Below, piece by piece: positions 5,469-61,109 of a DNA stretch of 64,000 nucleotides. Every line of letters begins with the position of its first letter. The first letter of the stretch is position 1. Position numbers and translations under genes: made by a program. The DNA comes from Acutalibacteraceae bacterium. Lineage in GTDB: Bacteria > Bacillota > Clostridia > Oscillospirales > Acutalibacteraceae. A model generated the notes under the pieces. It saw only the letters and a program-made list of their open reading frames with translations. It was not told where the DNA came from and searched no databases. The stretch spans positions 7,393 through 71,392 of the forward strand of contig JAZRPC010000078.1 of NCBI GenBank assembly GCA_045649005.1. The letters run 5' to 3'.

Positions 5469-7238
5469 ATGAGCAACGAAAACAAAAGCTCTATTGTCGA
5501 CAAAGGCAAAATGCTGTTCGGCGAAATCAAGGAGCATTGGAATACCCCTGCCGAGGGTAAATATGTTCCGTACAAAGAATATAAGGATGTTGTAATCGGT
5601 GTCGGTGCAAACTACACGGGCTCAAAAACTCTTGAGTATATCGGCTTCTGGTCAAGCTGCTTCCTCATTATGCACCACTACAAATTGCCGTATCTTACAT
5701 TCTCGGTTATCGGCCTTTTAAATATGCCTCTGGGTTATATTTCTGCCCTTATATGGTGGTATGTTTGCGATAACCTTGGCTTTTTACCGAAAAAGACCGA
5801 GAAAAAGGTATATCTTGTCTATGGTCTTATGATGGGGTTCGGCATTTCAACGCTATTGTTCGACTATTCAAGGCTATTCGACCAATCGGGCTCGTTTATC
5901 ACTATTCTCAACAGCTTTGAGGGTATGAATGCCACGGCGTGCTTTAAAACCTTTGGTACCCATTTTCTATATACAGGTTGGGTGGGTGCCCGTAATATAT
6001 TCTGGCGTAAGAAGCTGATTCCTAAATACGGCAGATACAAATACAGCCTCTATTGTGACGTTATACCGAAATGTGTAATGGTTATTCTTATAGGCTGGCT
6101 TCCTGTTTATAACATTGCAGACGTTGCAACACGTGTTTGGGTTGCAAACCTTCTTTTTGCTACATACAACGTGTTCGGCTTCGGTAACGTGCTTGAGGAA
6201 TGCTCAAAGAGAATAAGCCCCAATTTACAGGAAAGAATCCTTGTCAGAAGCTATCCTGTAAAAATATCACACATTTTCAACTCAATTCTTGCGATTATTC
6301 TCCCTGCAGTTGTCGGTATGCTCCGCCACGAATGGGCAGATATCAACTTCTATAGATTTGTTATCCCGATAACGTTCTGCATATCAGCAGCGTTCACAAT
6401 GGGTCTTGCGGGCAGAATTAAAGAAAGAATACCTCAACCGCCCATTGAAAAGAAGGTTCAGATTAAATTCTGGGACGGTATGCTGGGTGTTATGAAGAAT
6501 AAATACCTGCTTATTAAAACCGTTGTTGACCTTATTGATGCTTTGGGTAATGGTATGCTTCCTTTTGCAACAATTCTTTATTTCTACACGTTCCGTCTCA
6601 GCGGTCTGCCATACAGCCTTATTGTTGCACTCATATCCTTTGCGGGCACCCCGCCGGATCTGCTTTCCCCCTATTTCCTCAAGAAATTTTCATACAAACA
6701 GATTATGATTTTCTATCAGCTCAGCCGTGCTATCGGTAATGCCGTTATCGCTGTTGCGATGTGGACTCTTGGTGATAATCTTGCCCTTTGCGGAACAATC
6801 TGTATTGTAGTTCTCTTCTTTATGGAAATGACAAAGACCGTTCCAACAACCGCAGGTCATGATATGGGTGTGCGTATCAATGACTATCAAATGTATTTGT
6901 CGGGTGAACGTCTTGAAAGCTTTGCCGGTATTTTCGGCTGGTTTACAGGACCCATCACAACCTTTATTGGTCTTATAATCCCCATTTTCTTGTTGAAATA
7001 CGGCTTTAACAGCAACTGGGAAATCCTTTTCTTTGACGGTTCAAGACGAAATATTGTTGTTGTTCCCATTATTGTTGATGCAATCGGCTTCTTCCTTATG
7101 ACGATTCCGTATCTTTTCTGGGATTACGATAACAAAAAGCAGAACCTTGTTATGGAGGTTCTTAAACGCCGTGCCGAGGTAACGGAAAAAAAGGCACGGG
7201 AAGAGGGAGTCACCATTTCCGGTGGCTATAAAGGTTAA
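5469..7238 (+). CDS. polytopic membrane protein, distantly MFS/GPH-symporter-like
   Basis: 589 aa with 12 or more hydrophobic segments. The N-terminal region is arranged like glycoside-pentoside-hexuronide transporters. This is a weak family call. Confidence 0.5.
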   Translation: MSNENKSSIVDKGKMLFGEIKEHWNTPAEGKYVPYKEYKDVVIGVGANYTGSKTLEYIGFWSSCFLIMHHYKLPYLTFSVIGLLNMPLGYISALIWWYVCDNLGFLPKKTEKKVYLVYGLMMGFGISTLLFDYSRLFDQSGSFITILNSFEGMNATACFKTFGTHFLYTGWVGARNIFWRKKLIPKYGRYKYSLYCDVIPKCVMVILIGWLPVYNIADVATRVWVANLLFATYNVFGFGNVLEECSKRISPNLQERILVRSYPVKISHIFNSILAIILPAVVGMLRHEWADINFYRFVIPITFCISAAFTMGLAGRIKERIPQPPIEKKVQIKFWDGMLGVMKNKYLLIKTVVDLIDALGNGMLPFATILYFYTFRLSGLPYSLIVALISFAGTPPDLLSPYFLKKFSYKQIMIFYQLSRAIGNAVIAVAMWTLGDNLALCGTICIVVLFFMEMTKTVPTTAGHDMGVRINDYQMYLSGERLESFAGIFGWFTGPITTFIGLIIPIFLLKYGFNSNWEILFFDGSRRNIVVVPIIVDAIGFFLMTIPYLFWDYDNKKQNLVMEVLKRRAEVTEKKAREEGVTISGGYKG

Positions 7239-23293: not shown

Positions 23294-24121
23294 TTATTCA
23301 ATATTGAGTAAATTGGCTAAATTGTCATACAGAATTGATTTTAATTGAATATCTGACAGACCTAAATCAAATAAAAACTCCAATTCATCCTCTTGCTTCC
23401 ACATCGGAAAATCTGTTCCGAAAATCACTCTGTCTGTGCCGTAAAGGTTGATTATTTCTTTTGCTTTTTCTTTTGAAAGGGCATAGAAGCTGGAGCAGGT
23501 GTCAACGTAGAAATTTTTGTATTTGCACAAAATCTGCGGAGCAGAATCCCACACAGACCATCCGCCGAAATGGGCACCGATTATTGTCAAATCGGGGAAC
23601 ATTTTGAGAATTTTCTCAACTCTGTCGGGGTTGGAGTTATCAAATCTTGAATCACCCGTGTGCAAAAGCACAGGCAGGTGATGCTTGTTGCAGATTTCAA
23701 AAATTCTGATTACCTTGGGGTCGTCAACCTTGAAGCTCTGAATATCCGGATGAAGCTTGACACCCTTTAATCCAAGGTCGATAAGGTGCGTTACATCATC
23801 TTCAAGACTTTCACTTTCGGGGTGAAGTGAACCAAAGCCAATGAATCTTTCGGGGAATTGCCTGACCTCTTCTGCTATAAAGGTGTTTATGCTTTGTGCG
23901 TGGTGGGGAGTTGTTGCAACCGAGGTTACAAGACATTTTTCGACTCCAACCGAATCGCATTGGTTTATGAGTGCTTTTGCCGTGCCCACAAAACCGCAAC
24001 CGTTAATAACCCCGGATTCGCTTATCTGATAAAACGTGTCAATGCTGTCTGTTGCCTTTCGGGCGATTTTGTCGGGGAAAATGTGACAATGGGAATCTAT
24101 TACTTTGAAATTTTTATACAT
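23294..24121 (-). CDS. amidohydrolase-family metal-dependent TIM-barrel hydrolase
   Basis: 275 aa with the N-terminal metal motif IDSHCHIFP, later HTGD and GTDFP. This is the PF04909-like amidohydrolase_2 pattern. Confidence 0.75.
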   Translation of the reverse strand: MYKNFKVIDSHCHIFPDKIARKATDSIDTFYQISESGVINGCGFVGTAKALINQCDSVGVEKCLVTSVATTPHHAQSINTFIAEEVRQFPERFIGFGSLHPESESLEDDVTHLIDLGLKGVKLHPDIQSFKVDDPKVIRIFEICNKHHLPVLLHTGDSRFDNSNPDRVEKILKMFPDLTIIGAHFGGWSVWDSAPQILCKYKNFYVDTCSSFYALSKEKAKEIINLYGTDRVIFGTDFPMWKQEDELEFLFDLGLSDIQLKSILYDNLANLLNIE

Positions 24122-24180
24122 AGCTGAAACCTTCTTTGAAACACAAAAGTCGGGCAGAGCCCGACTTTTCGTTATGCTTT

Positions 24181-26652
24181 TTAAACGCTGCCTGTTTTTT
24201 GAGAATTGTATCTGTCGATTGATTCCTCTCGCATTTTGTATTTGAGAATTTTACCTGCAGCATTCATCGGGAATTCGTTTACAAACAAGAAATATTTAGG
24301 AACCTTGTGCTTAGCAATAGATGCATATCCGTATTCCTTCATTTCCTTTTCGTCGGCTGTTTCGCCCTTGTGAAGAATAATCCAAGCGCAGCATTCCTCA
24401 CCGTATTGCTCATCGGGAACGCCAACAACCTGAACGTCACGAACCTTGGGGTTGGTAAGGTAGAATTCCTCGATTTCACGTGGGTAGAGGTTTTCACCGC
24501 CACGGATAATCATATCCTTGAGTCTTCCCGTAACCTTGTAATATCCGTCGGGAGTTCTCATACAGATATCGCCGGAATGGAGCCAGCCTTCGCTGTCTAT
24601 TGCCTGTGCAGTTGCTTCGGGCATTTTGTAATAGCCCTTCATAATGTTAAAGCCACGGGCAACAAATTCACCGCTTTGACCGTCGGGGAGCTCTTCACCT
24701 GTTTCAGGGTCGATAATCTTACATTCAACACCGGGGAAGGCGCTGCCCACAGTTTCTACACGGTGGTCAAGGTCTTCGTTAACTTCGCCCATAGTACAGC
24801 CGGGCGAAGCCTCTGTCTGGCCGTAAACCGAAATAATCTCACGCATATTCATTTCAACCGAAGCACGGCGCATGAGGTCTGCGGGGCAGTTTGCACCTGC
24901 CATAATGCCCGTTCTCATATATGAGAAATCGGTTTTCGCAAAGTCAGGGTGGCTGAACATTGCAATAAACATTGTGGGAACACCGTTAAAGCAGGTGATT
25001 CGCTCGTCGTTGACACAAGCAAGTGATGACTTGGGTGAGAAATAGGGAATGGGGTAAAGCGTTCCTCCGTGAGTCATCATAGAGGTCATAGAAAGCACCA
25101 TTCCGAAGCAATGGAACATAGGCACCTGAATCATCATACGGTCAGCGGTTGACAAATCCATTCTGTCGCCGATTGTCTTGCCGTTGTTTATGATGTTGCG
25201 GTGTGTGAGCATAACACCCTTCGGGAAGCCTGTTGTACCTGAGGTGTATTGCATATTACAAACATCGTCAGGCTTTACGAGAGATGAGCGTCTGCGGACC
25301 TCTTCTCTCGGAATAAGGGAAGAGCGTGACAGCATCTGCTCCCAGGTAAGGCAACCGTCCATATCAAAGCCGACGGTTACAACGTTACGAAGGAAGGGGA
25401 GGTTTTTTGAATACAAGGGTGAGCCGGGCTCAAGTGTTTTAAGCTCGGGGCAAAGCTCCTCAATAATCTCCTTGTAGTTAATGTCCTTGCAATACTCAAT
25501 CATAACGAGAGTATGTGTGTCTGACTGTCTGAGCAAGTATTCAATTTCGTGAATCTTATATGCTGTGTTAACGGTAACAAGAACTGCACCGATTTTTGTT
25601 GTTGCCCAGAAGGTGATGAACCATTGCGGAACGTTGGTTGCCCAAATTGCAACGTGGTCACCCGCTTTTACACCAAGTGAAATCAAGGCGGCGGCACATT
25701 CGTCAACGTCACGGCGGAATTGCTCATAGGTTCTTGTGTAATCAAGAGTAGGGTACTTGAACGCATACTGGTCAGGATATTTTTCCGCCATTGTGTCAAG
25801 CACTTCTGAAAAGGTTGTGTCTATAACGTCGTACTTTTTCCATACAAACGTACCCGTTTTATCACGGTTGTAATACGCACGGTCATAAACCTTTTTTTCA
25901 CGCCCTAAAGAGGAAATGTAGTTTGTGAAGTGGGTGAGAACTATATCAGCATCGCTGATTTCTTCATTCCAGGCGGCACAGATAAAGCCCTCGTAATTAA
26001 GTGAAGAAAGAGAATTTAATAATTTTTCAACGTCTAAATCGCCTTCGCCGATTAAAACGGTTTTGCCGTCCTTCATATCTCCAAGGCGCACATATTTAAT
26101 GTATGCACCAAGATTTTTGATAGTGGTTTCAGCAGTTTCGCCCGCACCGAAATATGTCCACCTTACGTTCCACGATACACCGATAGCCGCAGAGGCAAAG
26201 TGATTGATAACACCGATTACGTTTTCGGTTTTTGCAAGGTAACCAACGGTTTCAAATAAAATATTGACGTCGCCCGTTTCCGCACGCTTGATTGCCGCTG
26301 ACATCTTTTCGTCGAGCACCTCGAAGGGTGTTTTGACTTCTGTGCGGACAATAACGTTTTCAATGCCCGATGCTGCCGCCATAGTAACGTATTTCTCAAT
26401 AAGCTCGGCAGTAGTTTCCTCGCTTTCAACAGGGGCAGGTATACGAAGTGCCGAAACAGAGAGGTTTCTGTTGACAAGCTTCCTTTTTGCATCGGCGATA
26501 CGGTCACGCCTTAATATGCTGTCGTGATGCGAGCTTCGTTCCTTTATGGCGTCGTAAATTTCAAAGCCTTCAAAACCGTAGTCAAAGGCATAACGACAGG
26601 TGTCAAGAAATGAAGCCCGACTTACGTTCTTGGTTGAAAATACAATTTTCAT
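24181..26652 (-). CDS. fusion protein: xylose-isomerase-like TIM barrel (N) plus AMP-dependent acyl-CoA synthetase/ligase (C)
   Basis: 823 aa. The first ~270 aa look like the sugar-phosphate isomerase/epimerase (AP_endonuc_2) fold. The remainder has adenylate-forming motifs YTSGTTGFPKGV, GQTE, GWLHSGD, DMIIRGGENLYPREIE and AGKILK. The GAGGAGG RBS lies inside the 3' end of the upstream gene. Confidence 0.8.
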   Translation of the reverse strand: MKIVFSTKNVSRASFLDTCRYAFDYGFEGFEIYDAIKERSSHHDSILRRDRIADAKRKLVNRNLSVSALRIPAPVESEETTAELIEKYVTMAAASGIENVIVRTEVKTPFEVLDEKMSAAIKRAETGDVNILFETVGYLAKTENVIGVINHFASAAIGVSWNVRWTYFGAGETAETTIKNLGAYIKYVRLGDMKDGKTVLIGEGDLDVEKLLNSLSSLNYEGFICAAWNEEISDADIVLTHFTNYISSLGREKKVYDRAYYNRDKTGTFVWKKYDVIDTTFSEVLDTMAEKYPDQYAFKYPTLDYTRTYEQFRRDVDECAAALISLGVKAGDHVAIWATNVPQWFITFWATTKIGAVLVTVNTAYKIHEIEYLLRQSDTHTLVMIEYCKDINYKEIIEELCPELKTLEPGSPLYSKNLPFLRNVVTVGFDMDGCLTWEQMLSRSSLIPREEVRRRSSLVKPDDVCNMQYTSGTTGFPKGVMLTHRNIINNGKTIGDRMDLSTADRMMIQVPMFHCFGMVLSMTSMMTHGGTLYPIPYFSPKSSLACVNDERITCFNGVPTMFIAMFSHPDFAKTDFSYMRTGIMAGANCPADLMRRASVEMNMREIISVYGQTEASPGCTMGEVNEDLDHRVETVGSAFPGVECKIIDPETGEELPDGQSGEFVARGFNIMKGYYKMPEATAQAIDSEGWLHSGDICMRTPDGYYKVTGRLKDMIIRGGENLYPREIEEFYLTNPKVRDVQVVGVPDEQYGEECCAWIILHKGETADEKEMKEYGYASIAKHKVPKYFLFVNEFPMNAAGKILKYKMREESIDRYNSQKTGSV

Positions 26653-26653
26653 T

Positions 26654-28042
26654 TTATGCCTCCTCGAATACGATTTTGTTCAATGCATTGATATATGCTC
26701 TGATGCTTGCGGCAACAATGTCGGTAGAGGTGCCGTTACCTGAATAAAGCTTGCCGTTGTTGCGAAGCCTTACAAGTGCAGAGCCGAGTGCTTCTTTTCC
26801 CTTAGTTACGGATTGCACCTGGAAATCATCAAGCTCGTAGTGGTGACCTATGCACTGCTCAATTGCACGGAAAACGGAGTCGATAGGACCGTCACCGTTA
26901 CTTACACCGCAAATGATTTCGTCGTTGCATTTCAAGGTAACCTGAGACATAGAGGCTGACATGTTACTGCTGGTTGTTGTATATGTTTCAAAGTGGTAGG
27001 TGGAGGGAGCCTGCATGGCTGAGCTTGCAATAATTGCCTCAAATTCCTTGTAGCCGACGGCACCCTTTCTTTCGCAAACCTGCTTAATAACCTTGTGAAC
27101 ATTGCCGATGTCAGAATCTGAAAGCTCGTAGCCTAACACAGCGGCTGCCTGGGCAATCTGCGCAATTGTGGAATCAGAGTCAATAAGAATCTTTTTACCT
27201 TCGCTTATTGAATTGTTGTTTTCATATTCATCGTGGTTAATGCTTGATAACATATCGTCAATGCTTGCGTGGATTTTTGTGTTATTAAGTTTAAATTCGG
27301 CATTAACCTGCTTGCCGCAAGCATTTATTGCGTCGGAAATCTCACCTGTGAGAAGTGTGTTTTTGCCCGCCATTGCACATTTAATGCCGTCAGCACCGCT
27401 TTTGATTGCAGAAAAAGCACATGCAACTGCCATATTGATGCGGTCAGATACCTGCACGTAAACAGGGATGCTTACGGCTTCCTTTACGCTTGAAACCAAT
27501 TCAGCAATATCATCGGGGGTTGAAGCGCCTGCATCATCGCAGATTGTTACCATGCCGGCACCGCACTGCTCAGCCTCTTTAACTGCGGCAATAAGGAAGT
27601 CTTTATCTGCTCTTGTTGCATCAAGTGCAGAAAACTCAACGTCAGAGCAAAGAGCTTTTGCTTCTTTGATGAGCTCTTTGATTCTGTCGAGCATTTTTGC
27701 TTGCTTTACGTGGTATGTGTATTCCATCTGAATGGTGGATACGGGAAGCTCAACCTGAAGGCGGGGCTTCTGAGCATCCTTGATGCAATCCCAAGCGCAC
27801 GAAACGTCTTCGGTTGTGAACCCTACGGGGATTGCGAAAACAGCATTCTGCACGTTCTGGGCGATTGTTTTATAAATAATTTTATCTTCACGAGGGGATT
27901 TTATTGCAGGGATTTCAATAACGTCAACACCGATTTTGTCGGCACAGGCTGCGATTGCTGACTTTTCACGGAATAGCAAGGATACAGCTCTGTCCTCTGA
28001 AATCTTTTTAAGTGTGATGTCTGAAATAATAATTTTTTTCAT
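26654..28042 (-). CDS. 2-isopropylmalate synthase-like protein lacking the catalytic metal ligands but retaining the LeuA C-terminal regulatory domain
   Basis: This is an HMGL/LeuA-like TIM barrel, but DTTLRDGEQ is replaced by DITLKKISE and HCHNDLGLAV by QVSDRINMAV. The C-terminus (GDGPIDSVFRAIEQ...DIVAASIRAYINALNKI) matches the LeuA dimerisation/allosteric domain. The likely start is the second ATG (28042), with proper RBS spacing; the ORF track extends to 28051. Confidence 0.7.
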   Translation of the reverse strand: MKKIIISDITLKKISEDRAVSLLFREKSAIAACADKIGVDVIEIPAIKSPREDKIIYKTIAQNVQNAVFAIPVGFTTEDVSCAWDCIKDAQKPRLQVELPVSTIQMEYTYHVKQAKMLDRIKELIKEAKALCSDVEFSALDATRADKDFLIAAVKEAEQCGAGMVTICDDAGASTPDDIAELVSSVKEAVSIPVYVQVSDRINMAVACAFSAIKSGADGIKCAMAGKNTLLTGEISDAINACGKQVNAEFKLNNTKIHASIDDMLSSINHDEYENNNSISEGKKILIDSDSTIAQIAQAAAVLGYELSDSDIGNVHKVIKQVCERKGAVGYKEFEAIIASSAMQAPSTYHFETYTTTSSNMSASMSQVTLKCNDEIICGVSNGDGPIDSVFRAIEQCIGHHYELDDFQVQSVTKGKEALGSALVRLRNNGKLYSGNGTSTDIVAASIRAYINALNKIVFEEA

Positions 28043-28082
28043 TTTGCTCATCCTTTCAGCAGATAAAATATAATGTAATATA

Positions 28083-28371
28083 AATAGCCAATAAAAAAGC
28101 CCTGAGATTCGAAAATCTCAGGGACGAATTTTTAAAAAATCCGTGGTACCACCCCGGTTACTGACAAAGGTCAGTCACTCATTAGGACTCTTAATTAAGT
28201 CTGTAGCCATGGTAACGGGGCCGCCGTAACTCCTTACACGAGGTGTCGGTTGGGGAGCTCTGCTCCGGAACGAGACCGAATTTTTGCAACGCACCGACTC
28301 ACAGCAACCGTCGGCTCTCTGAAACGTGAAACCAAAAACACGTAATTCCTTCATCGCATTTGAAAAATATT
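28083..28371 (-). promoter_or_regulatory. T-box leader, specifier read as CUC (Leu)
   Basis: Read on the minus strand: K-turn GCGAUGAAGGAA...UUCCGGAGCA and the AGAGAG bulge. The distal loop is GGUUGCUGUGAG. Specifier CUC followed by a purine immediately precedes the lower helix (28272-28274). The T-box sequence is GGGGUGGUACCACGG (28141-28155). The terminator is cccugagauu/aaucucaggg plus U6 (28083-28113). Confidence 0.85.
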
Positions 28372-28377
28372 GAAAGA

Positions 28378-28406
28378 ATGATAACATTCTTTGGTTTCTT
28401 TGTCAA
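28378..28406 (-). promoter_or_regulatory. sigma-A promoter of the Leu T-box operon
   Basis: On the minus strand: TTGACA (28406-28401), 17-nt spacer, TATCAT (28383-28378). Confidence 0.6.
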
Positions 28407-28446
28407 CACTTTTTTATAAAAAATTAAACAAATAGCAAAAAAACTC

Positions 28447-28475
28447 TTGACACATAATATATAAAGTGATAAAAT
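28447..28475 (+). promoter_or_regulatory. sigma-A promoter of the first plus-strand T-box operon
   Basis: TTGACA (28447-28452), 17-nt spacer, TAAAAT (28470-28475). Confidence 0.65.
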
Positions 28476-28484
28476 CCTTGCAAT

Positions 28485-28766
28485 TGAAAATATCACAAAT
28501 AAAAGCTGTGACGAAGACGGTTGAAAATTACAACTTCCAGAGAGTCGGCGGTTGCTGCGAGCCGATAGCTTGTGTTTTCAAAACCTATCACTTCTGAGCT
28601 GAAGGTCCGAAAAATTTTTTTAGTAGGCGCCTTCCGAGAATGCTGCGTTAGTGCAACGGGGTTGTTGGACTCCTGAGTGGCAATTTTATTGCAATTTGAG
28701 TGGTACCGCGGATTAATTTTCGTCTCAAAGTAAAACCAAAGGGTTTTGTTTTGGGGCGTTTTTTAT
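28485..28766 (+). promoter_or_regulatory. T-box leader, specifier read as AUC (Ile)
   Basis: K-turn GCUGUGACGAAG...CUUCUGAGC, AGAGAG, distal loop GGUUGCUGCGA. AUC followed by A lies directly 5' of the lower-helix strand CUUC (28587-28590). The T-box sequence is AAUUUGAGUGGUACCGCG (28694-28710). The terminator stem is 28721-28758 plus U6. Confidence 0.85.
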
Positions 28767-28807
28767 TTGTGAGTTTTTGATAATGCTTTATGAAGGAAGG
28801 AATCATT

Positions 28808-31081
28808 ATGCAGAACAATTCAGTTACAAACAAGCTTGCAGAGGTCGCAAAGCGTATTGGTGAACTCCGTGACATTTACGGCTTTTCTGTTAAGGAAATG
28901 GCTGAAAAAACCGAACTCACATTGGAGGAATATCTCTCTTTTGAACAAGCAAAAGAGGATTTGCCCTTCTCTTTTATTCACAAATGTGCTCTTGCTTTTG
29001 ACGTTGAAATAACAGACCTTCTTGAGGGTCAGAGTGCAAAGCTCACAACATACAACGTAACACGTAGGGGAAAGGGTCAGACAACAGCTAATGAAGATGG
29101 TATTCTGATTCAGAATCTTGCACCTAAGTTCAGAAATAAGCTTGCAAATCCCTATTGGGTTAAATATGAATACAGAAGCGAGCTTCAGTCTATGCCCATT
29201 GAGCTTGCAACTCACTCGGGTCAGGAGTTTGACCTTGTTATCAAGGGCTCCCTTAAAGTTCAGATTGGTGAGCATACAGAAATTCTTCACGAGGGTGACA
29301 GCATTTTCTACAAAAGCTCAATTCCTCACGGTATGATCGCTGTTAATGGCGAGGATTGTCTTTTTCTTGCTATGGTTATGGCTGAGGATGAAGAGGTTGC
29401 AGACACAAATATGAACGCTGTCAGCGTTGCAGACACCACGAAGAGAATCCCTCTCATCTGCGACAAATTCATTAAAACAACCGAGGATGAGAACGGTGTT
29501 TGCACCGGTATAGATTTCGAAAACGAAGATGAATTCAACTTTGCTTTCGACGTTGTTGACGAAATCGGCAGACAGTATCCTGAAAAGCTTGCTATGCTTC
29601 ATATTGCAGACGATATGACTGAGCACCGTTTTACCTTCAAGGATATTAAAGAGGGTTCATCACAGGCGGCAAACTATTTCAAATCCTTGGGCATCAAAAA
29701 GGGTGACAGAGTTCTTCTTGTTCTCAAGCGTAACTATCAGTTCTGGTTGGCAATTCTCGGTCTTCATAAGCTTGGTGCAGTTGCAATCCCCGCAACAAAT
29801 CAGCTTGTTGTTCATGATTATGAATACCGCTTCAATGCCGCAGGTGTTTCCGCTGTTGTTGTAACCGCCGACGGTGTTGCAACCGATTACATCGACGAGG
29901 CTCAGAAAAATTGCCCCACTCTTAAAACAAAAATCGTTGCCAACGGCAAAAAAGAGGGTTGGCATTGCTTTGATGAAGAATATGCTCTCTTCAGCCGCCG
30001 ATTTGTCCGTGCTGAGGATGCACCCTGTGGTAACGACCCCATGATTATGTTCTTCACATCCGGCACAACAGGCTACCCGAAAATCGCAACCCATTCCCAT
30101 AAATATCCCTTGGGTCATTTTCTTACAGCTAAATACTGGCATTGTGTTGAACGTGACGGAATCCATTTCACAATTTCCGAAACGGGTTGGGGTAAGGCTC
30201 TTTGGGGCAAGCTCTACGGACAATGGCTTTGCGAGGGTGCAGTTTTCGTTTATGACTTTGAACGCTTTGATGCTTCAAAGATTCTTCCTATGTTTGCAAA
30301 GTACAATATCACAACCTTCTGTGCACCCCCCACAATGTACAGAATGCTTATAAAACAAGATATTTCACAGTATGATTTGTCATCAATAAAGCACGCCACA
30401 ACAGCGGGTGAGGCTCTTAACCCCGAGGTTTTCAAGCAGTTTGAAAAAGCAACAGGTCTCAGAATCCACGAGGGCTTCGGTCAGACTGAAACAACTCTTT
30501 CAATCGCAAACTTCAAAGGCACTAAAATTAAAATCGGAGCTATGGGTCAACCCACACCTCTTTATGATATCGATATAGTTGACCCCGACGGCAGACCCGT
30601 TGCCGACGGCGAAACAGGCGAAATTGTTGTTCATACTGACGGCAAGATTCCCTGCGGTCTTTTCCTTGGTTATTATAACGACCAAGAGAAAACAGACGAG
30701 GTGTGGCACGATGGTCTTTACCACACAGGTGACACCGCATGGCGTGATGAGGACGGTTATCTCTGGTACGTTGGTCGTGTCGATGACGTTATCAAATCAT
30801 CCGGCTACCGCATCGGACCATTCGAAATCGAAAATGTTATTATGGAGCTCCCTTATGTTCTTGAGTGTGGTGTTTCTGCCGCTCCCGATGAGGTGAGGGG
30901 TCAGGTTGTTAAAGCAAGCATTGTTCTGACCCCCGGCACAGAAGGAACAGAAGAACTCAAGAAAGAGATTCAGAAATATGTAAAGGAGCATACAGCACCT
31001 TACAAATATCCCAGAATCGTTGTTTTCCGTGATGAGCTTCCTAAGACAATCAGCGGCAAAATCATAAGAAATAAGCTTTGA
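28808..31081 (+). CDS. fusion protein: XRE-type HTH plus cupin plus AMP-forming (medium-chain type) acyl-CoA synthetase
   Basis: ATG at 28808 follows a GGAAGG RBS. The HTH_3-like N-terminus is LRDIYGFSVKEMAEKTELTLEEYLSFE. The cupin motif is HSGQEFDLVIKGSLKVQIGEH...GDSIFY...PHG. The ACS body has FFTSGTTGYPK, GFGQTE, YHTGD, GRVDDVIKSSGYRIGPFEIE and PKTISGKI. Confidence 0.85.
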   Translation: MQNNSVTNKLAEVAKRIGELRDIYGFSVKEMAEKTELTLEEYLSFEQAKEDLPFSFIHKCALAFDVEITDLLEGQSAKLTTYNVTRRGKGQTTANEDGILIQNLAPKFRNKLANPYWVKYEYRSELQSMPIELATHSGQEFDLVIKGSLKVQIGEHTEILHEGDSIFYKSSIPHGMIAVNGEDCLFLAMVMAEDEEVADTNMNAVSVADTTKRIPLICDKFIKTTEDENGVCTGIDFENEDEFNFAFDVVDEIGRQYPEKLAMLHIADDMTEHRFTFKDIKEGSSQAANYFKSLGIKKGDRVLLVLKRNYQFWLAILGLHKLGAVAIPATNQLVVHDYEYRFNAAGVSAVVVTADGVATDYIDEAQKNCPTLKTKIVANGKKEGWHCFDEEYALFSRRFVRAEDAPCGNDPMIMFFTSGTTGYPKIATHSHKYPLGHFLTAKYWHCVERDGIHFTISETGWGKALWGKLYGQWLCEGAVFVYDFERFDASKILPMFAKYNITTFCAPPTMYRMLIKQDISQYDLSSIKHATTAGEALNPEVFKQFEKATGLRIHEGFGQTETTLSIANFKGTKIKIGAMGQPTPLYDIDIVDPDGRPVADGETGEIVVHTDGKIPCGLFLGYYNDQEKTDEVWHDGLYHTGDTAWRDEDGYLWYVGRVDDVIKSSGYRIGPFEIENVIMELPYVLECGVSAAPDEVRGQVVKASIVLTPGTEGTEELKKEIQKYVKEHTAPYKYPRIVVFRDELPKTISGKIIRNKL

Positions 31082-31202
31082 TAAATCACGAATCAGAGCA
31101 TTTACTCACCTTGCAGTACCTTTGTACAGCTTCGGTTCATAAATAACTCCGATTCATCGATTTCTCTCTGCTTACAATTTGCTATAAATTATAATAAAAA
31201 AC

Positions 31203-31231
31203 TTGACATTTACCTTATATTATGGTATCTT
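31203..31231 (+). promoter_or_regulatory. probable sigma-A promoter of the second plus-strand T-box operon
   Basis: TTGACA (31203-31208), 17-nt spacer ending TGg, and a weak -10 TATCTT (31226-31231). Confidence 0.45.
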
Positions 31232-31239
31232 TGAGGAAA

Positions 31240-31509
31240 TTGAATAAAAAGGCGTTGAAGAAAAGGGCGCAATCATTTCACCTTGCAGAGAAGTGGCGGT
31301 TGGTGCAAGCCACAGGTTGAGAGATTGATGTTTGTAGTTTCCGAGCCGGGAGGAAGAACAGCTTTCGCTTAGTAGAACCTCTCCGTGATTGCTGCGTAAA
31401 GGCATAGAAGTTGTTGGACTTCGAGAGAGGCAGTTTAAACTGCAATTTGAGTGGTACCGCGGGTATATTTTTACTCGTCTCAAAGAATATCTTTGGGACG
31501 AGTTTTTTA
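31240..31509 (+). promoter_or_regulatory. T-box leader, specifier read as GUA (Val)
   Basis: K-turn GGCGUUGAAGAAA...UUUCCGAGCC, AGAGA, distal loop GGUUGGUGCAA. GUA followed by G lies directly 5' of the lower-helix strand UUUC (31334-31337). The T-box sequence is AAUUUGAGUGGUACCGCG (31445-31461). The terminator is cucgucucaaag/cuuugggacgag (31474-31502) plus U6. Confidence 0.8.
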
Positions 31510-31539
31510 TTGTGTCCCTACAAAAACGGAGGAAAGATT

Positions 31540-33834
31540 ATGGACAAAATCACCGGTCTTGATTTTAAAATCAAGGAGATGGCTGCCCGTATTCGGGAAT
31601 TGCGTGAAATTGAGGGCTACACCACAGCCGAGATGGCTTCAAAAACGGGTGTTGCCGAAAGTGAATACATTGCTTGCGAAAATGGTGAAAGCGATCTTAA
31701 CTTTGCATTCATTTATCGTTGTGCACTTGCGTTCAATGTTGATGTTTCAAGCATCATAGAGGGTAGCACACCCAAGCTCACAAACTACGTTTTCACAAAA
31801 GCGGGTAAAGGGCAGAAGATTGAAAAAGCTCACGGAATGACTTATTTCAACCTTGCTTCAAAATTCAAAAATAAAATTGCCGAGCCTCTTTTTGTTGAGG
31901 CTACATACAGCGAAGAAAATCAGAATAAAGATATTGAGCTCACTTCTCACGACGGTCAGGAGCTTGACATTGTTGTTGAAGGTAAGCTGAAGGTTCAGGT
32001 GGGTGAGCACTCAGAGATTCTCGGCCCCGGTGACAGCATCTATTATGATTCTCTCACCCCTCACGGTATGATTGCTGTTGACGGTAAGGATTGTACCTTC
32101 TACGCTATCGTTCTTAATCCGTCGGGTGAGCCTATCCCTGAGCTTCAGCACGTGAAGACTGAGGAGTATAAAGAACCTGTCAAGGTTAAAGAGGATAAAA
32201 AAGAAAGAATTTATCATAAATTCATTGATGTTGAGCGTAACGAAAAAGGTACACCCACATCAATCAAATTTAAAAATACAGAAAACTTCAACTTTGCATA
32301 TGACCTTATTGATGCTCTCGCAGACAGGGAGCCCGATAAATTGGCAATGCTTCATATTGCAAGAGATAAGACCGAAAGAAGATTCACTTTTAAGGATATG
32401 AAGCGTGGCTCCGCTCAGGCGGCGAACTACTTTAAATCCTTGGGCATCAAAAAGGGCGACAGGGTTATGCTCATACTCAAGCGCCATTACCAGTATTGGT
32501 TTGCAATGCTCGGTCTTAATAAATTGGGTGCTATCGGTATACCTGCTCCCAACCAGTTGCAGGAGCACGACCTTGAATATCGTTTCCAGGCTGCGGGTAT
32601 CAAGGCAATTATCTGCACAACAGACGGCGACGTTGCAAATCAGGTTGATATGGCGGCTGAAAAGTGCCCCGACCTTAAAATCAAAATCGCAGTTGGCGAA
32701 GAACGTGACGGTTGGAGAAATTACGACGAAGAAAGTAAGCTCTTCAGCTCCCATTACGAAAGGGGCGAAAATGCTCCTGGTGGCGACGATTTGATGCTTA
32801 TGTTCTTCACATCGGGCACAACAGGCTACCCCAAAATTGCCGCACATAGCTACACATACGCTCTCGGTCATTTCCACACAGCCAAATATTGGCATAATGT
32901 TGACCCCGACGGCCTTCATTTCACAATTTCTGACACAGGCTGGGCAAAGTCTATGTGGGGCAAATTCTACGGCCAATGGCTTTGCGAAGCGGCTCTTTTC
33001 GTTTACGACTTTGACCGCTTTGATGCAGCAGACATTCTTCCCATGTTTGCAAAACACAACATCACAACGTTCTGTGCACCGCCTACAATGCTCAGAATGA
33101 TGATAAAACAAGATATTTCAAAATACGATTTCTCTTCCGTTAAGCATATGACAACAGCGGGCGAGGCTCTTAACCCCGAGGTTTATCGTCAATTCGAAAA
33201 GGCAACAGGCCTCCAGATTCTCGAAGGCTTTGGTCAGACTGAAAGCACAATGATTATCGGTAATATGACAGGCGCACCCCACAAAATCGGTTCTATGGGT
33301 AAACCTGCTCCCATTTATGATGTTTGCCTTGTTGATGCAGACGGCAACAAAGTTAATGTCGGTGAAAATGGTGAAATCGTTGTCAACGTAAAAGATGGCG
33401 CTCCCTGTGGTCTCTTCAAGGGCTACTATAACGACGAAGAAAAAACCAAAGAGGTTTGGCACGACGGCTACTATCATACAGGTGACGTTGCCTGGATGGA
33501 TGAAGACGGCTTCTATTGGTATGTTGGTCGTGTGGATGACGTTATTAAATCCTCAGGCTATCGTATAGGTCCATTTGAAATCGAAAGCGTTATTATGGAG
33601 CTTCCCTACGTTCTTGAGTGCGGCGTTTCTGCTGCTCCTGATGAAGTCAGAGGACAGGTTGTTAAAGCAAGCATAGTTCTTGTTCCCGGAACAGAGGGTA
33701 CGGAAGAACTCAAAAAAGAGATTCAACAGTACGTTAAGGAGAAAACTGCTCCTTATAAATATCCCCGAATCGTTGTATTCCGTGATGAATTGCCAAAAAC
33801 AACCAGTGGTAAGATTCAGCGAAATAAATTATAA
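31540..33834 (+). CDS. fusion protein: XRE-type HTH plus cupin plus AMP-forming acyl-CoA synthetase (tandem paralog of 28808-31081)
   Basis: ATG at 31540 follows a GGAGGAAAG RBS, and the domain order is the same. The last 101 residues differ from the paralog at only 6 positions. In a 56-residue HTH segment, 26 residues are identical. Confidence 0.85.
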   Translation: MDKITGLDFKIKEMAARIRELREIEGYTTAEMASKTGVAESEYIACENGESDLNFAFIYRCALAFNVDVSSIIEGSTPKLTNYVFTKAGKGQKIEKAHGMTYFNLASKFKNKIAEPLFVEATYSEENQNKDIELTSHDGQELDIVVEGKLKVQVGEHSEILGPGDSIYYDSLTPHGMIAVDGKDCTFYAIVLNPSGEPIPELQHVKTEEYKEPVKVKEDKKERIYHKFIDVERNEKGTPTSIKFKNTENFNFAYDLIDALADREPDKLAMLHIARDKTERRFTFKDMKRGSAQAANYFKSLGIKKGDRVMLILKRHYQYWFAMLGLNKLGAIGIPAPNQLQEHDLEYRFQAAGIKAIICTTDGDVANQVDMAAEKCPDLKIKIAVGEERDGWRNYDEESKLFSSHYERGENAPGGDDLMLMFFTSGTTGYPKIAAHSYTYALGHFHTAKYWHNVDPDGLHFTISDTGWAKSMWGKFYGQWLCEAALFVYDFDRFDAADILPMFAKHNITTFCAPPTMLRMMIKQDISKYDFSSVKHMTTAGEALNPEVYRQFEKATGLQILEGFGQTESTMIIGNMTGAPHKIGSMGKPAPIYDVCLVDADGNKVNVGENGEIVVNVKDGAPCGLFKGYYNDEEKTKEVWHDGYYHTGDVAWMDEDGFYWYVGRVDDVIKSSGYRIGPFEIESVIMELPYVLECGVSAAPDEVRGQVVKASIVLVPGTEGTEELKKEIQQYVKEKTAPYKYPRIVVFRDELPKTTSGKIQRNKL

Positions 33835-33857
33835 TGTATAAAAAGAAGGTGAAAAAG

Positions 33858-34520
33858 ATGCAAAGTAAACGAATGACCCTTTTTGCAGGGCACTACGGTA
33901 GCGGCAAAACAAATATTGCCGTTAACTACGCTTTGTATCTTAAAAGCCTTGGCGAAAACGTCGTTATTGCTGACCTTGATATCGTTAATCCCTATTTCAG
34001 AACACGAGACAGTCTTGAGGATTTGAACAAAGCAGGAATCAAATTGATTTCCTCAGCGTTCGCAAACTCAAACGTTGATTTACCTGCTTTGCCGCAGGAT
34101 GTTTATTCTCTTCTTGACAAACGTGAAGAAAAGGCGATAATGGATATTGGCGGTGATGACCGTGGTGCTTACGCTTTGGGTAGATATGCAGACGCTATTA
34201 AAGATGAAAACGACTATGAAATGCTTTTCGTTTTCAATAAATATCGTCCGCTAACACCCGATGCAGAATCTGCTTTTGAAATAATGCAGGAAATTGAAGC
34301 GGCGTGCAAGGTTAAATTCACCGCAATAGTCAATAACTCCAACCTTGGTGAAAGCACCACGGCAGAGGATGTTTTAAATTCGGTTGACAGTGCCGAAAAA
34401 TTGTCTGAATTAACAGGCTTGCCTGTTAAAATGACAACTGTCACAGAAAATTTAGTTAATAATCTCAACGGAAAAATTTCAAATCTGTTTCCGCTGACTT
34501 TACAAAAAAAGATAATTTAG
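33858..34520 (+). CDS. P-loop NTPase (MinD/CooC-like SIMIBI fold), function unknown
   Basis: Walker A GHYGSGKT and Walker-B-like VVIADLD. The ATG at 33858 follows a GAAGGTG RBS (track ORF starts at 33834). Confidence 0.6.
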   Translation: MQSKRMTLFAGHYGSGKTNIAVNYALYLKSLGENVVIADLDIVNPYFRTRDSLEDLNKAGIKLISSAFANSNVDLPALPQDVYSLLDKREEKAIMDIGGDDRGAYALGRYADAIKDENDYEMLFVFNKYRPLTPDAESAFEIMQEIEAACKVKFTAIVNNSNLGESTTAEDVLNSVDSAEKLSELTGLPVKMTTVTENLVNNLNGKISNLFPLTLQKKII

Positions 34521-34531
34521 GAGGCAGAAAA

Positions 34532-34738
34532 ATGGCAAAAGTAACATTCGCAGAAAATGTTTGCAAGGGTTGCGGTTTGTGCGTAACTGCTTGTCCCAAG
34601 AAAATTGTGGAACTTGATTCTGCAAAGCTTAACGCAAAAGGTCATCATCCTGCACATTGTATCGATGATAGCAAGTGTATCGGTTGCGCATTTTGTGCAA
34701 CAATGTGCCCCGACTGCGCTATAACTGTTGAAAGGTAA
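34532..34738 (+). CDS. 2x[4Fe-4S] ferredoxin, delta-subunit type of 2-oxoacid:ferredoxin oxidoreductases
   Basis: 68 aa with two CxxCxxCxxxCP motifs (CKGCGLCVTACP, CIGCAFCATMCP). It lies immediately upstream of a KorA/VorB-like start. Confidence 0.8.
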   Translation: MAKVTFAENVCKGCGLCVTACPKKIVELDSAKLNAKGHHPAHCIDDSKCIGCAFCATMCPDCAITVER

Positions 34739-34748
34739 GGTGAAATAA

Positions 34749-35348
34749 ATGGGTGAGAAAGTTTTAATGAAAGGTAATGAGGCTATCGCCGAGGCTGCAA
34801 TCAGAGCAGGTTGTATGCATTATTTCGGTTACCCCATTACTCCCCAGACAGAAATTGCCGCATATATGGCAAAAAGAATGCCCAAAGTTGGTGGCGGTCA
34901 GGAGCAGAACGTTCACTCCGGCACGGAGGCAACCCCCGCAATATTCTCATTCGGTGCTGCCGCAAATGCCGCAGGCGACGTGGCTGCAAACTCTGCCTAT
35001 GTTGCAGAACTAAAAAAACAATTGTTGCAGGGCATAGAAAATATATCTTGCGTAACAATAAACTCTCCGGAGGATGCAATCCCCTATATTCTCAACATTT
35101 CAATCCTCGGCCTACCCAGCCAGCCCATTGTTAATTTTATGAGTGACAAGGGCATTTACATTTCCGCAGGCTCTGCTTGCAAAATGGGTCACAGAAGCCC
35201 TGTGCTCACAGCTATGGGTCTTTCGCCCGAGGTTACAGACAGCGCTGTGAGAATCAGCCTGAGCAGATACAACACACCTGAAGAGATTGATTATCTAATA
35301 AGCGCAATTACAGAAGCCGCTCAAAAATACGGCAAAAAACAAAGGTGA
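34749..35348 (+). pseudogene. chimeric ORF: N-terminal ~50 aa of a 2-oxoacid:ferredoxin oxidoreductase alpha subunit fused in frame to the C-terminal ~150 aa of cysteine desulfurase NifS/IscS
   Basis: Residues 1-49 ([43 protein letters not shown]) are a typical KorA/VorB N-terminus. From [14 protein letters not shown] onward the sequence is NifS-like ([20 protein letters not shown]...[15 protein letters not shown]). The junction is at GGT GGC GGT (34890-34898). The PLP-lysine region of NifS and all TPP/CoA domains of the oxidoreductase are absent. Confidence 0.75.
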
Positions 35349-60341: not shown

Positions 60342-60379
60342 ATTCCCGCACAACTTTTTTGTTGTGTGGGAATTTTTTT
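60342..60379. terminator. bidirectional terminator after dnaJ
   Basis: Stem attcccgcacaac / gttgtgtgggaat with a T6 loop, followed by T6. Confidence 0.8.
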
Positions 60380-61109
60380 AACGATTAAACTTCGATAAAT
60401 CTATATTAATTCCGCCATTTCCCGTTGTAGTCGGGGTGGGCATGTATGGTATGAGCACCTCTGCAAGGTTGCAGATAGGCATAGACTGAACATAGACCTT
60501 ACCGGGGCCGGTAACCTTTGTGTTAAACACACCCTCGCCACCGAAAAGAACGTTTTTGACGCCCTTTATTGTCTGAATCTCAATGGTACAGGTTTCGCTC
60601 ATTGCCGCAAGGTGACCCGTGTCAATTATAATACTCTCGCCAACGCCAAGTGAATATTCCTTACAATGGCCGTCTATCTCAACAAACACAACGCCGTTAC
60701 CGCTGACCTTCTGCATAATAAAGCCCTCGCCACCAAAGAAGCCCGTGCCGAATCTGTGGTGAAAGTGAACAGAAAGGTCAAGACCCTTCTCCATAGCGAG
60801 AAAGCCCTTACGCTGAATGATTATTCCGCAACCGGGTGTAACCTCAAAGGGGATTATTGACCCGGGGAAGCTTGACGAAAACGCTATCATTCCCATGCCG
60901 GAAACAGAAGTGTATTCATTAAGGAAAATCGACTCACCGGAAAACATTCTGCCGAATGCCTTTTTAAGTCCCCCGCCTGCATTTGTAGCCATCTGCATAT
61001 TGGGGCTCATCCAGCTCATTGAGCCACGCTCGGTGCAAAGAGTCTGCCCCTCCTGTGGGTAGCATATAACAACAGGCAGCGTGCCGCCTTCTATTTCATA
61101 TCTTAACAT
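60378..61109 (-). CDS. AIM24/TIGR00266 family protein (DUF124)
   Basis: 243 aa with the typical pattern GSMSWMSPNMQM...FSGESIFLNEYT...GGEGFIMQKVSG.G.VF and VQSMP. Confidence 0.75.
   Translation of the reverse strand: MLRYEIEGGTLPVVICYPQEGQTLCTERGSMSWMSPNMQMATNAGGGLKKAFGRMFSGESIFLNEYTSVSGMGMIAFSSSFPGSIIPFEVTPGCGIIIQRKGFLAMEKGLDLSVHFHHRFGTGFFGGEGFIMQKVSGNGVVFVEIDGHCKEYSLGVGESIIIDTGHLAAMSETCTIEIQTIKGVKNVLFGGEGVFNTKVTGPGKVYVQSMPICNLAEVLIPYMPTPTTTGNGGINIDLSKFNR

Follow-up and report, generated by a model that had tools for sequence, protein, structure and literature searches.

The window analysed here, a 64,000-nucleotide stretch of contig JAZRPC010000078.1 from an Acutalibacteraceae bacterium, carries T-box leaders with leucine, isoleucine and valine specifiers in front of operons that encode acyl-CoA synthetases. 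We consider it likely that these operons form a T-box regulon that makes Val, Ile and probably Leu from the matching branched short-chain fatty acids; support is good for the Ile and Val branches and weaker for the Leu branch. No cross-assignment of specifier and gene occurs in ~250 T-boxes of orthologous loci, and a single residue of the synthetases tracks the Ile or Val specifier of the leader. A preliminary description, made from the sequence letters of the window, had proposed a salvage regulon with one synthetase for each amino acid. The computational analysis supports this proposal, which withstood each of its own refuting checks that can be run by computation, with three corrections: the Leu branch is built differently and its substrate is presumptive, the ferredoxin-dependent oxidoreductase is truncated in the window, and this enzyme and the aminotransferase IlvE stand under the Val leader only.

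T-box leaders and the genes they precede

Three full-length matches to the T-box family RF00230 are found in the window with the Rfam covariance model, each covering model positions 1–219. The Leu leader lies on the minus strand (28363..28117; 102.0 bits, E 2.3e-21), holds the T-box sequence GGGUGGUACCACGG within this span and presents the specifier CUC (28274..28272) followed by G. The Ile leader (28499..28730, plus strand; 105.9 bits, E 2.3e-22) presents AUC (28587–28589) followed by A, and the Val leader (31246..31485, plus strand; 92.1 bits, E 8.7e-21) presents GUA (31334–31336) followed by G. The RF00230 gathering score is 93 bits, with the Ile and Leu leaders above it and the full-length Val leader 0.9 bit below. 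In the covariance-model alignments the specifier and its purine occupy the four positions preceding the lower stem-I helix in all three leaders, and UGA...GAG, AGAGA and GGUUGNUG are present in each, covering the K-turn, AG bulge and distal loop of stem I. UGGUACC(G/A)CG is likewise found three times, and each T-box match shares its 3' end with an intrinsic terminator, a hairpin followed by a U-run (Leu, 28123..28100, minus strand, with a 10-bp stem; Ile, 28721..28758, and Val, 31473..31503, plus strand). All three promoters are near-consensus with an extended -10 element, following the pattern TTGACA-17-TAnnnT; the promoter-like sites read TTGACA-17-TATCAT for Leu (28378..28406, minus strand), TTGACA-17-TAAAAT for Ile (28447..28475, plus strand) and TTGACA-17-TATCTT for Val (31203..31231, plus strand), each with a TG extension. 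Because of the RF00230 matches, the specifiers, the promoters and the overlapping terminators, we classify the three leaders as ordinary transcription-attenuation T-boxes for Leu, Ile and Val. No tRNA genes are found in the 64-kb window. The preliminary description had listed the same leader parts and had read CUC, AUC and GUA as the specifiers at identical coordinates; both readings hold, the Rfam alignment placing these triplets at the specifier position in the window and the corresponding ones in distant relatives. The triplets match those of the Bacillus leuS, ileS and valS leaders.

Relatives were sampled by a scan of one genome per species, which gave more than 543 of them, and ~160 related loci were analysed. 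The best 80 relatives share 75% identity or more and come nearly all from metagenome-assembled genomes (MAGs) of Acutalibacteraceae, Oscillospiraceae or "Clostridia" from human and ruminant guts, and a metagenome scan with a distant representative provided 80 further loci at 48–64% identity. Leaders were found by nhmmer, and specifiers were read both from the profile alignment and by a structure-aware rule and were cross-checked with Rfam on the most distant loci, where the Rfam alignments agree with the specifier pairing. By inspection and Rfam, 20 complete leaders missed by a strict regular-expression caller are K-turn or AG-bulge variants with the expected specifiers; five further uncalled matches are contig-end cuts or spurious. 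A stem I covariance model of our own was dropped, since its three-sequence MAFFT alignment misplaced the Leu specifier. The 4-bp helix beside the specifier covaries (GAAG:CUUC, GGAA:UUCC, GAAA:UUUC and GGAG:CUCC), and all four of its base pairs form in 239 of the 246 distinct leaders, thereby fixing the register in which the specifier is read.

The pairing of specifier and gene is kept in these orthologous loci, as a check proposed in the preliminary description required of the regulon. Among 215 leaders that precede genes for acyl-CoA synthetases fused to an N-terminal helix-turn-helix (HTH)-cupin module, AUC goes with a Gly after the Trp of motif A4 in 106 of 106 cases, and GUA or GUC goes with an Ala at this place in 102 of 103, the sole exception, GUCAA, being ambiguous; a contig end truncates five of the leaders, and one was left unscored when its pocket motif was not found. 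All 40 leaders that precede a LeuA-like gene carry CUC or CUG. When 101 Val-type and 103 Ile-type proteins are aligned, a set that reaches down to 55–61% identity, the residue after the A4-motif Trp (Ala469 and Gly468 in the proteins of the window) is the sole perfectly discriminating column; Met472/Leu471, three residues on, ranks next and discriminates at 96% in each group. In acetyl-CoA synthetases the residue after this Trp lines the acyl pocket. The smaller Gly for a C5 acid and the larger Ala for a C4 acid would be a chemically sensible mapping, and this pocket residue probably sets the specificity for C4 versus C5 acids.

The Leu, Ile and Val units are usually adjacent in the relatives examined. 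Their orientation varies, and the Leu operon may stand on either side of the cluster of synthetase, oxidoreductase and IlvE genes. Locus L157 (4640..9262), from a high-GC metagenomic lineage, has what appear to be two tandem genes of ~750 codons, of which tblastn matched the second only. An apparent third pocket type (Leu) with a T-box at this locus was rejected: Rfam finds no T-box there, so the T-box sequence match is a chance one. The second gene, with its Leu pocket and no T-box, may belong to a branch of the family that differs in regulation or in specificity.

Fused synthetases and the valine operon

The Ile-type HTH-cupin-acyl-CoA synthetase is encoded at 28790..31081 on the plus strand and is a candidate 2-methylbutyrate-CoA ligase (Gly468 in the numbering of this open reading frame (ORF)). 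Its product is 757–763 residues long depending on the start; the gene probably begins at the ATG at 28808 rather than at 28790, because a GGAAGG Shine-Dalgarno sequence is found there and the resulting 757 residues match the length in relatives. The Val-type enzyme (31540..33834, plus strand; 764 residues, Ala469), a candidate isobutyrate-CoA ligase, is 63% identical to it. Both proteins are composed of HTH_XRE and cupin domains (HTH_19/HTH_3 followed by Cupin_2 in Pfam), which make up an N-terminal module of ~215 residues, and of a complete AMP-forming acyl-CoA synthetase with AMP-binding and AMP-binding_C domains (Pfam E 1e-64 to 1e-66). The preliminary description had recognized the synthetases and left the HTH-cupin module unmentioned. 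Because the ANL catalytic motifs TSGTxGxPK, GQTE, YHTGD and GRxDDxIKxSGYRIG are invariant in the 204 aligned sequences, the fused proteins are taken to be working ligases.

The closest solved structure to the catalytic part is 3ETC, the MacsMa protein (residues 241–762; E 7e-189, 633 bits). MacsMa, the medium-chain acyl-CoA synthetase of Methanosarcina acetivorans, has Gly at the discriminating position (SGWGKCVWGK), as the Ile-type enzymes do, and its favoured substrate is 2-methylbutyrate (PMC10455477). Unlike the Ile- and Val-type enzymes, it is archaeal and has no HTH-cupin N-terminal module. Its Trp259 could not be mapped onto our alignment, the offset of the PDB chain numbering being unknown, and was not used. 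The top NCBIfam model for both fused synthetases is MbcS (NF047394), with 439 and 444 bits versus an equivalog cut-off of 850, and a score so far under the cut-off makes them relatives of MbcS and not orthologs. MbcS is the methylbutyryl-CoA synthetase of Staphylococcus aureus, where it supports the making of branched-chain fatty acids out of carboxylic acids (PMC10026030, PMC11167679). The nearest characterised relatives, MacsMa and MbcS, are enzymes that activate 2-methylbutyrate or isobutyrate by preference.

The N-terminal module is under constraint. Its cupin residues His137, Glu141 and His175 do not vary in any of the 204 sequences, and 12 of 18 clade-specific positions of the first data set fall in residues 11–131. 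Its nearest PDB match is 1Y9Q, a weak match that nevertheless covers both domains. Aligned upstream regions of 81, 66 and 35 leaders contain no conserved operator beyond the -35/-10 elements, and sites elsewhere are possible. The fused architecture is narrow, with ~3 full-length clusters at 50% identity carrying it. A library representative from outside the window, P0124, is a 758-residue HTH-cupin-synthetase homologue with 44% identity and destroyed ANL motifs, in which A3 reads SYSYGMAKP, YHTGD has become FHTGT and the A10 Lys is replaced by Val; P0124 probably arose from the enzyme and acts as a regulator or sensor.

The Val operon continues on the plus strand with a SIMIBI-class P-loop NTPase of ~220 residues (33834..34520), a 2x[4Fe-4S] ferredoxin (34532..34738) that corresponds to the delta-type subunit of 2-oxoacid:ferredoxin oxidoreductases, and the first 49 codons of a VorB-type alpha subunit of 2-oxoisovalerate:ferredoxin oxidoreductase (VOR; 34749..34896). 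The continuation named in the preliminary description is present to this extent, except that the ORF starting as VorB is a chimera: collinearity with relatives stops at 34896, and ~150 C-terminal codons from a NifS/IscS cysteine desulfurase gene (34897..35348, plus strand), which lies outside the regulon, are fused in frame to the VorB fragment. The junction 34896/34897 falls within GGTGGCGG (KVGG|GQEQ). In relatives the AIM24 gene follows ilvE; in the window it is found 25 kb off on the other strand (60378..61109). The chimera arose by rearrangement with a deletion or is a product of the assembly, and for the chimeric ORF, ThiI and the Val-type synthetase of the window no exact-sequence match is on record elsewhere. 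The window does not hold the complete set of alpha, beta, gamma and delta VOR subunits, and with a truncated VOR and no IlvE at the locus the pathway is incomplete here as assembled.

By comparison, the close relatives L001–L004 all carry the full operon, composed of synthetase, P-loop protein, ferredoxin, VorA, VorB, VorG and IlvE. L004, a MAG labelled Oscillospiraceae SIG572, is the closest species representative, with a synthetase 99% identical to that of the window; its VorB reaches 560.7 bits with a model whose cut-off is 399, and the product of its last gene scores 499.6 bits with the IlvE branched-chain aminotransferase model, for which the cut-off is 307. The P-loop protein, ferredoxin and VorA/B/G follow in 61 of the 68 Val-leader operons with enough downstream sequence, together with IlvE in 58 of the 61. 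The neighbours are those expected of the pathway and not unrelated genes, a further point that the preliminary description had put up for checking. The synthetase is the only gene of the Ile unit in 68 of 69 cases. The P-loop protein, whose place between synthetase and ferredoxin is conserved in relatives, has the conserved motifs GHYGSGKTN, DLDIVNPYFR, GGDDRGA and NNSNLG; it has no NCBIfam match, and its PDB matches (MinD, ParA, SRP) are weak, with E values of at least 0.02. NNSNLG resembles a degenerate NKxD motif.

The leucine-leader operon

The Leu leader is followed on the minus strand by three genes. The first (26654..28051) encodes a 465-residue LeuA-like pseudoenzyme, the second (24181..26652) an 823-residue fusion of a TIM barrel and an acyl-CoA synthetase, which is a candidate isovalerate-CoA ligase, and the third (23294..24121) a 275-residue Amidohydro_2 protein, found after the fusion gene in 11 of 26 relatives. 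Two statements of the preliminary description are revised by this arrangement. It had placed no leader before an ilv/leu-type gene, and the Leu leader directly precedes a leuA-like one; it had also let each leader control a synthetase paralog, which is right for the Ile and Val enzymes and fails for Leu, where the synthetase is the second gene, carries the TIM-barrel fusion and is only 25% identical to the other two.

The LeuA-like protein is composed of HMGL-like and LeuA_dimer domains (Pfam E 2e-31 and 3e-31). In the window protein DTTLRDGEQ is changed to DITLKKISE, SPED to SALD and HCH to QVS, so that none of the catalytic residues (Arg, Asp, Glu and two His) is kept. Among 38 orthologs not one retains the Asp, the Glu or either His, which have been replaced or deleted, and the Arg is kept in a single protein; all non-canonical catalytic positions except that of the Glu also vary among these orthologs. 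The best conserved part is the C-terminal LeuA_dimer regulatory domain. The top NCBIfam score is 255.8 bits versus a cut-off of 532. Because the catalytic and metal-binding residues are replaced and the score stays under equivalog level, we conclude from the sequence that the protein is not a LeuA (2-isopropylmalate synthase).

The fusion gene begins 1 nt past the stop codon of the LeuA-like gene, and the same gene order is found in 38 of 38 loci, with gaps of 5–12 nt between the tblastn match ends in 37. Its barrel is of the AP_endonuc_2 type and xylose-isomerase-like, and its ligase falls in the FadD/PRK12583-like subfamily; the 25% identity and the barrel fusion set it apart from close paralogs such as the Ile and Val enzymes. 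Conservation within the fusion protein is highest in the ligase domain, and its ANL motifs are intact by eye in the protein of the window. The Leu specifier and the genomic neighbours point to isovalerate as its presumptive substrate, and the pseudo-LeuA may act as a leucine-responsive regulatory partner of the coupled ligase. In a close relative (L001, 1614..4073 and 6093..6710) the TIM-barrel ligase is split into two ORFs of 491 and 322 codons, and ~1 kb with an ORF of 205 codons is inserted between the Leu and Ile leaders.

Proposed regulon, rival explanations and known systems

According to the proposed mechanism, a shortage of Val, Ile or Leu would leave the matching tRNA uncharged, and this tRNA would pair with the specifier (GUA, AUC or CUC) and stabilise the antiterminator, allowing RNA polymerase to read into the genes. 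The Val leader would then provide the isobutyrate-type synthetase, to which intact relatives would add the P-loop protein, the four-subunit VOR and IlvE, and isobutyrate would be converted to isobutyryl-CoA, by reductive carboxylation to 2-oxoisovalerate, and finally to valine. The Ile leader would provide the paralogous 2-methylbutyrate-type synthetase, and the Leu leader the dead LeuA-like protein, translationally coupled to the other synthetase, which would activate isovalerate. In each branch VOR would carboxylate the acyl-CoA with reduced ferredoxin and IlvE would aminate the 2-oxoacid. We infer which substrates are used, that the flux is anabolic and that all three branches share VOR and IlvE, and the HTH-cupin, pseudo-LeuA, TIM-barrel, P-loop and amidohydrolase parts presumably have roles within this scheme.

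A second, protein-level layer of amino acid sensing, which would place each branch under the control of both tRNA charging and free amino acid, is a tentative addition that we regard as rather unlikely. In such a layer the pseudo-LeuA would be the leucine-binding regulatory subunit of the isovalerate-activating ligase, an idea drawn from its leucine-responsive domain being the one part under strong constraint and from its translational coupling to that ligase. In the Ile and Val enzymes, the HTH-cupin modules would be end-product sensors or autoregulators, as the invariant His-Glu-His triad and the clade-specific residues suggest.

Several observations weigh against the proposed regulon. The locus of the window is without VOR beta, gamma and IlvE, and its alpha subunit is cut after 49 codons. 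VOR and IlvE stand under the Val leader only, which leaves a rise of VOR on Ile or Leu limitation alone unexplained. Both fused synthetases score ~440 bits with the NCBIfam model of MbcS, where an equivalog would reach 850, and the TIM-barrel ligase belongs to a different ANL subfamily in which this analysis found no characterised branched-chain member. Furthermore, 25 of the 229 family members with enough upstream sequence (~11%), mostly from divergent metagenomic lineages, show no detectable T-box. The evidence on induction, substrates and flux direction is computational throughout.

The synthetases could instead supply branched acyl-CoA primers for branched-chain membrane fatty acids, since MbcS, their top NCBIfam model, supports such synthesis in S. 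aureus (PMC10026030, PMC11167679) and an acyl-CoA product could go to lipid and amino acid fates alike. This is improbable given that expression would be gated by the charging of Val, Ile and Leu tRNAs, that VOR and IlvE in the Val operon would turn the acyl-CoA into an amino acid, and that the conserved cluster was not seen to include any genes for fatty acid synthesis. Still less probable is it that the fused proteins are mainly DNA-binding regulators with the ligase fold as a sensor. HTH_XRE plus cupin is indeed the architecture of known regulators such as the nearest PDB match, 1Y9Q, the homologue P0124 has lost its catalytic motifs, and two thirds of the clade-specific positions (12 of 18, first set) lie within the N-terminal 131 residues; but all 204 sequences keep the ANL catalytic motifs unchanged, no conserved operator beyond -35/-10 was found upstream of the leaders, and the pocket residue tracks the specifier. 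A catabolic direction, from branched-chain amino acids (BCAAs) to branched fatty acids, is conceivable insofar as VOR and IlvE are reversible, yet we give it hardly any credence: T-boxes respond with induction to a lack of the amino acid and not to an excess, AMP-forming synthetases push the reaction towards acyl-CoA and do not serve to conserve ATP in fermentation, and neither a phosphotransacylase/kinase nor an ADP-forming synthetase was found in the cluster.

For the Leu branch taken by itself, there is some room for the explanation that the pseudo-LeuA, TIM-barrel ligase and amidohydrolase carry out or regulate another leucine-related reaction and not isovalerate salvage. The ligase's 25% identity to the Ile and Val enzymes and its FadD/PRK12583-like subfamily, the extra TIM-barrel domain, the Amidohydro_2 gene that often comes next and the absence of the next-step enzyme from the Leu operon would all suit it. 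The 40 Leu specifiers of 40 upstream of the LeuA-like gene, the usual position of the Leu operon beside the Ile/Val cluster of synthetase, VOR and IlvE genes in the relatives examined, and a ligase domain that is best conserved and keeps its ANL motifs speak for isovalerate salvage.

The leaders resemble the BCAA T-boxes of Bacillota, such as those of Bacillus subtilis ileS, valS, leuS and ilv-leu, in matching RF00230 and in their stem I parts, UGGUACC sequence and competing terminator. They differ in their targets, which are here acyl-CoA synthetases, a ferredoxin-dependent 2-oxoacid oxidoreductase and IlvE, for a salvage by reductive carboxylation, instead of tRNA synthetases, de novo ilv/leu enzymes or transporters. 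Likewise, MbcS feeds lipid synthesis, whereas the Ile- and Val-type synthetases sit with VOR and IlvE under amino-acid-specific T-boxes. As in anabolic VOR, the relatives encode four subunits (ferredoxin, VorA, VorB and VorG), with an alpha subunit that passes the VorB cut-off; unlike known VOR, the genes share one operon with a dedicated synthetase, the P-loop protein and IlvE under a Val T-box, and in the window the enzyme is truncated. Reductive carboxylation of branched acyl-CoA is known from classical labelling studies of rumen bacteria and methanogens, which the logic of the regulon fits. The fusion of a DNA-binding-type module to a metabolic enzyme recalls 'trigger enzymes' such as BirA and PutA as well as HTH_XRE-cupin regulators (1Y9Q), and the HTH-cupin module could be an allosteric sensor instead of a DNA binder.

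T-box control of amino acid genes, isoacid reductive carboxylation and the Macs, MbcS and VOR enzymes are already known. By comparison, no prior description was found of T-box-controlled acyl-CoA synthetases or VOR, of the operon as a basis of isoacid assimilation, or of the fused and degenerate proteins, in line with the preliminary description, which was aware of no account of such a regulon. T-boxes linked to acyl-CoA synthetases or VOR do not occur in the full-text literature searched, which did not cover one key T-box survey, so a prior mention is possible. Among the targets of T-boxes, Wels et al. (2008) mention neither CoA genes nor those for ferredoxins or oxidoreductases, and Sun et al. 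(2013) mention no acyl-CoA, ligase or oxidoreductase genes.

In the literature searched, no assignment was found of genes for the entry of isoacids into amino acids. Rumen and gut Clostridia need or use isobutyrate, 2-methylbutyrate and isovalerate, the "isoacids" that also serve as feed additives. The operons are a concrete and widespread candidate gene set, with more than 543 matches among species-representative genomes, most of them Oscillospirales of the human and ruminant gut, with Acutalibacteraceae among them, and many gut and rumen Clostridia probably use these genes to rebuild BCAAs from branched short-chain fatty acids. The T-box specifier serves as a built-in label that names the amino acid each enzyme serves and points to a single pocket residue. 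The regulon also adds ferredoxin-dependent reductive carboxylation to the known T-box-controlled genes, and the HTH-cupin synthetase, the pseudo-LeuA and the TIM-barrel-ligase fusion may be new regulatory devices. It bears on gut and rumen microbiology, T-box work and enzyme specificity, and involves no new principle.

Two further RNA elements were noted at the related loci. A T-box at L042 (6..184) has a Phe specifier (UUC) and lies upstream of pheS-pheT, a canonical arrangement unrelated to the regulon, and was set aside. At L083 (1024..1100), a Gut-1 RNA (RF01706, 72.8 bits) is found a few kb upstream of the cluster.

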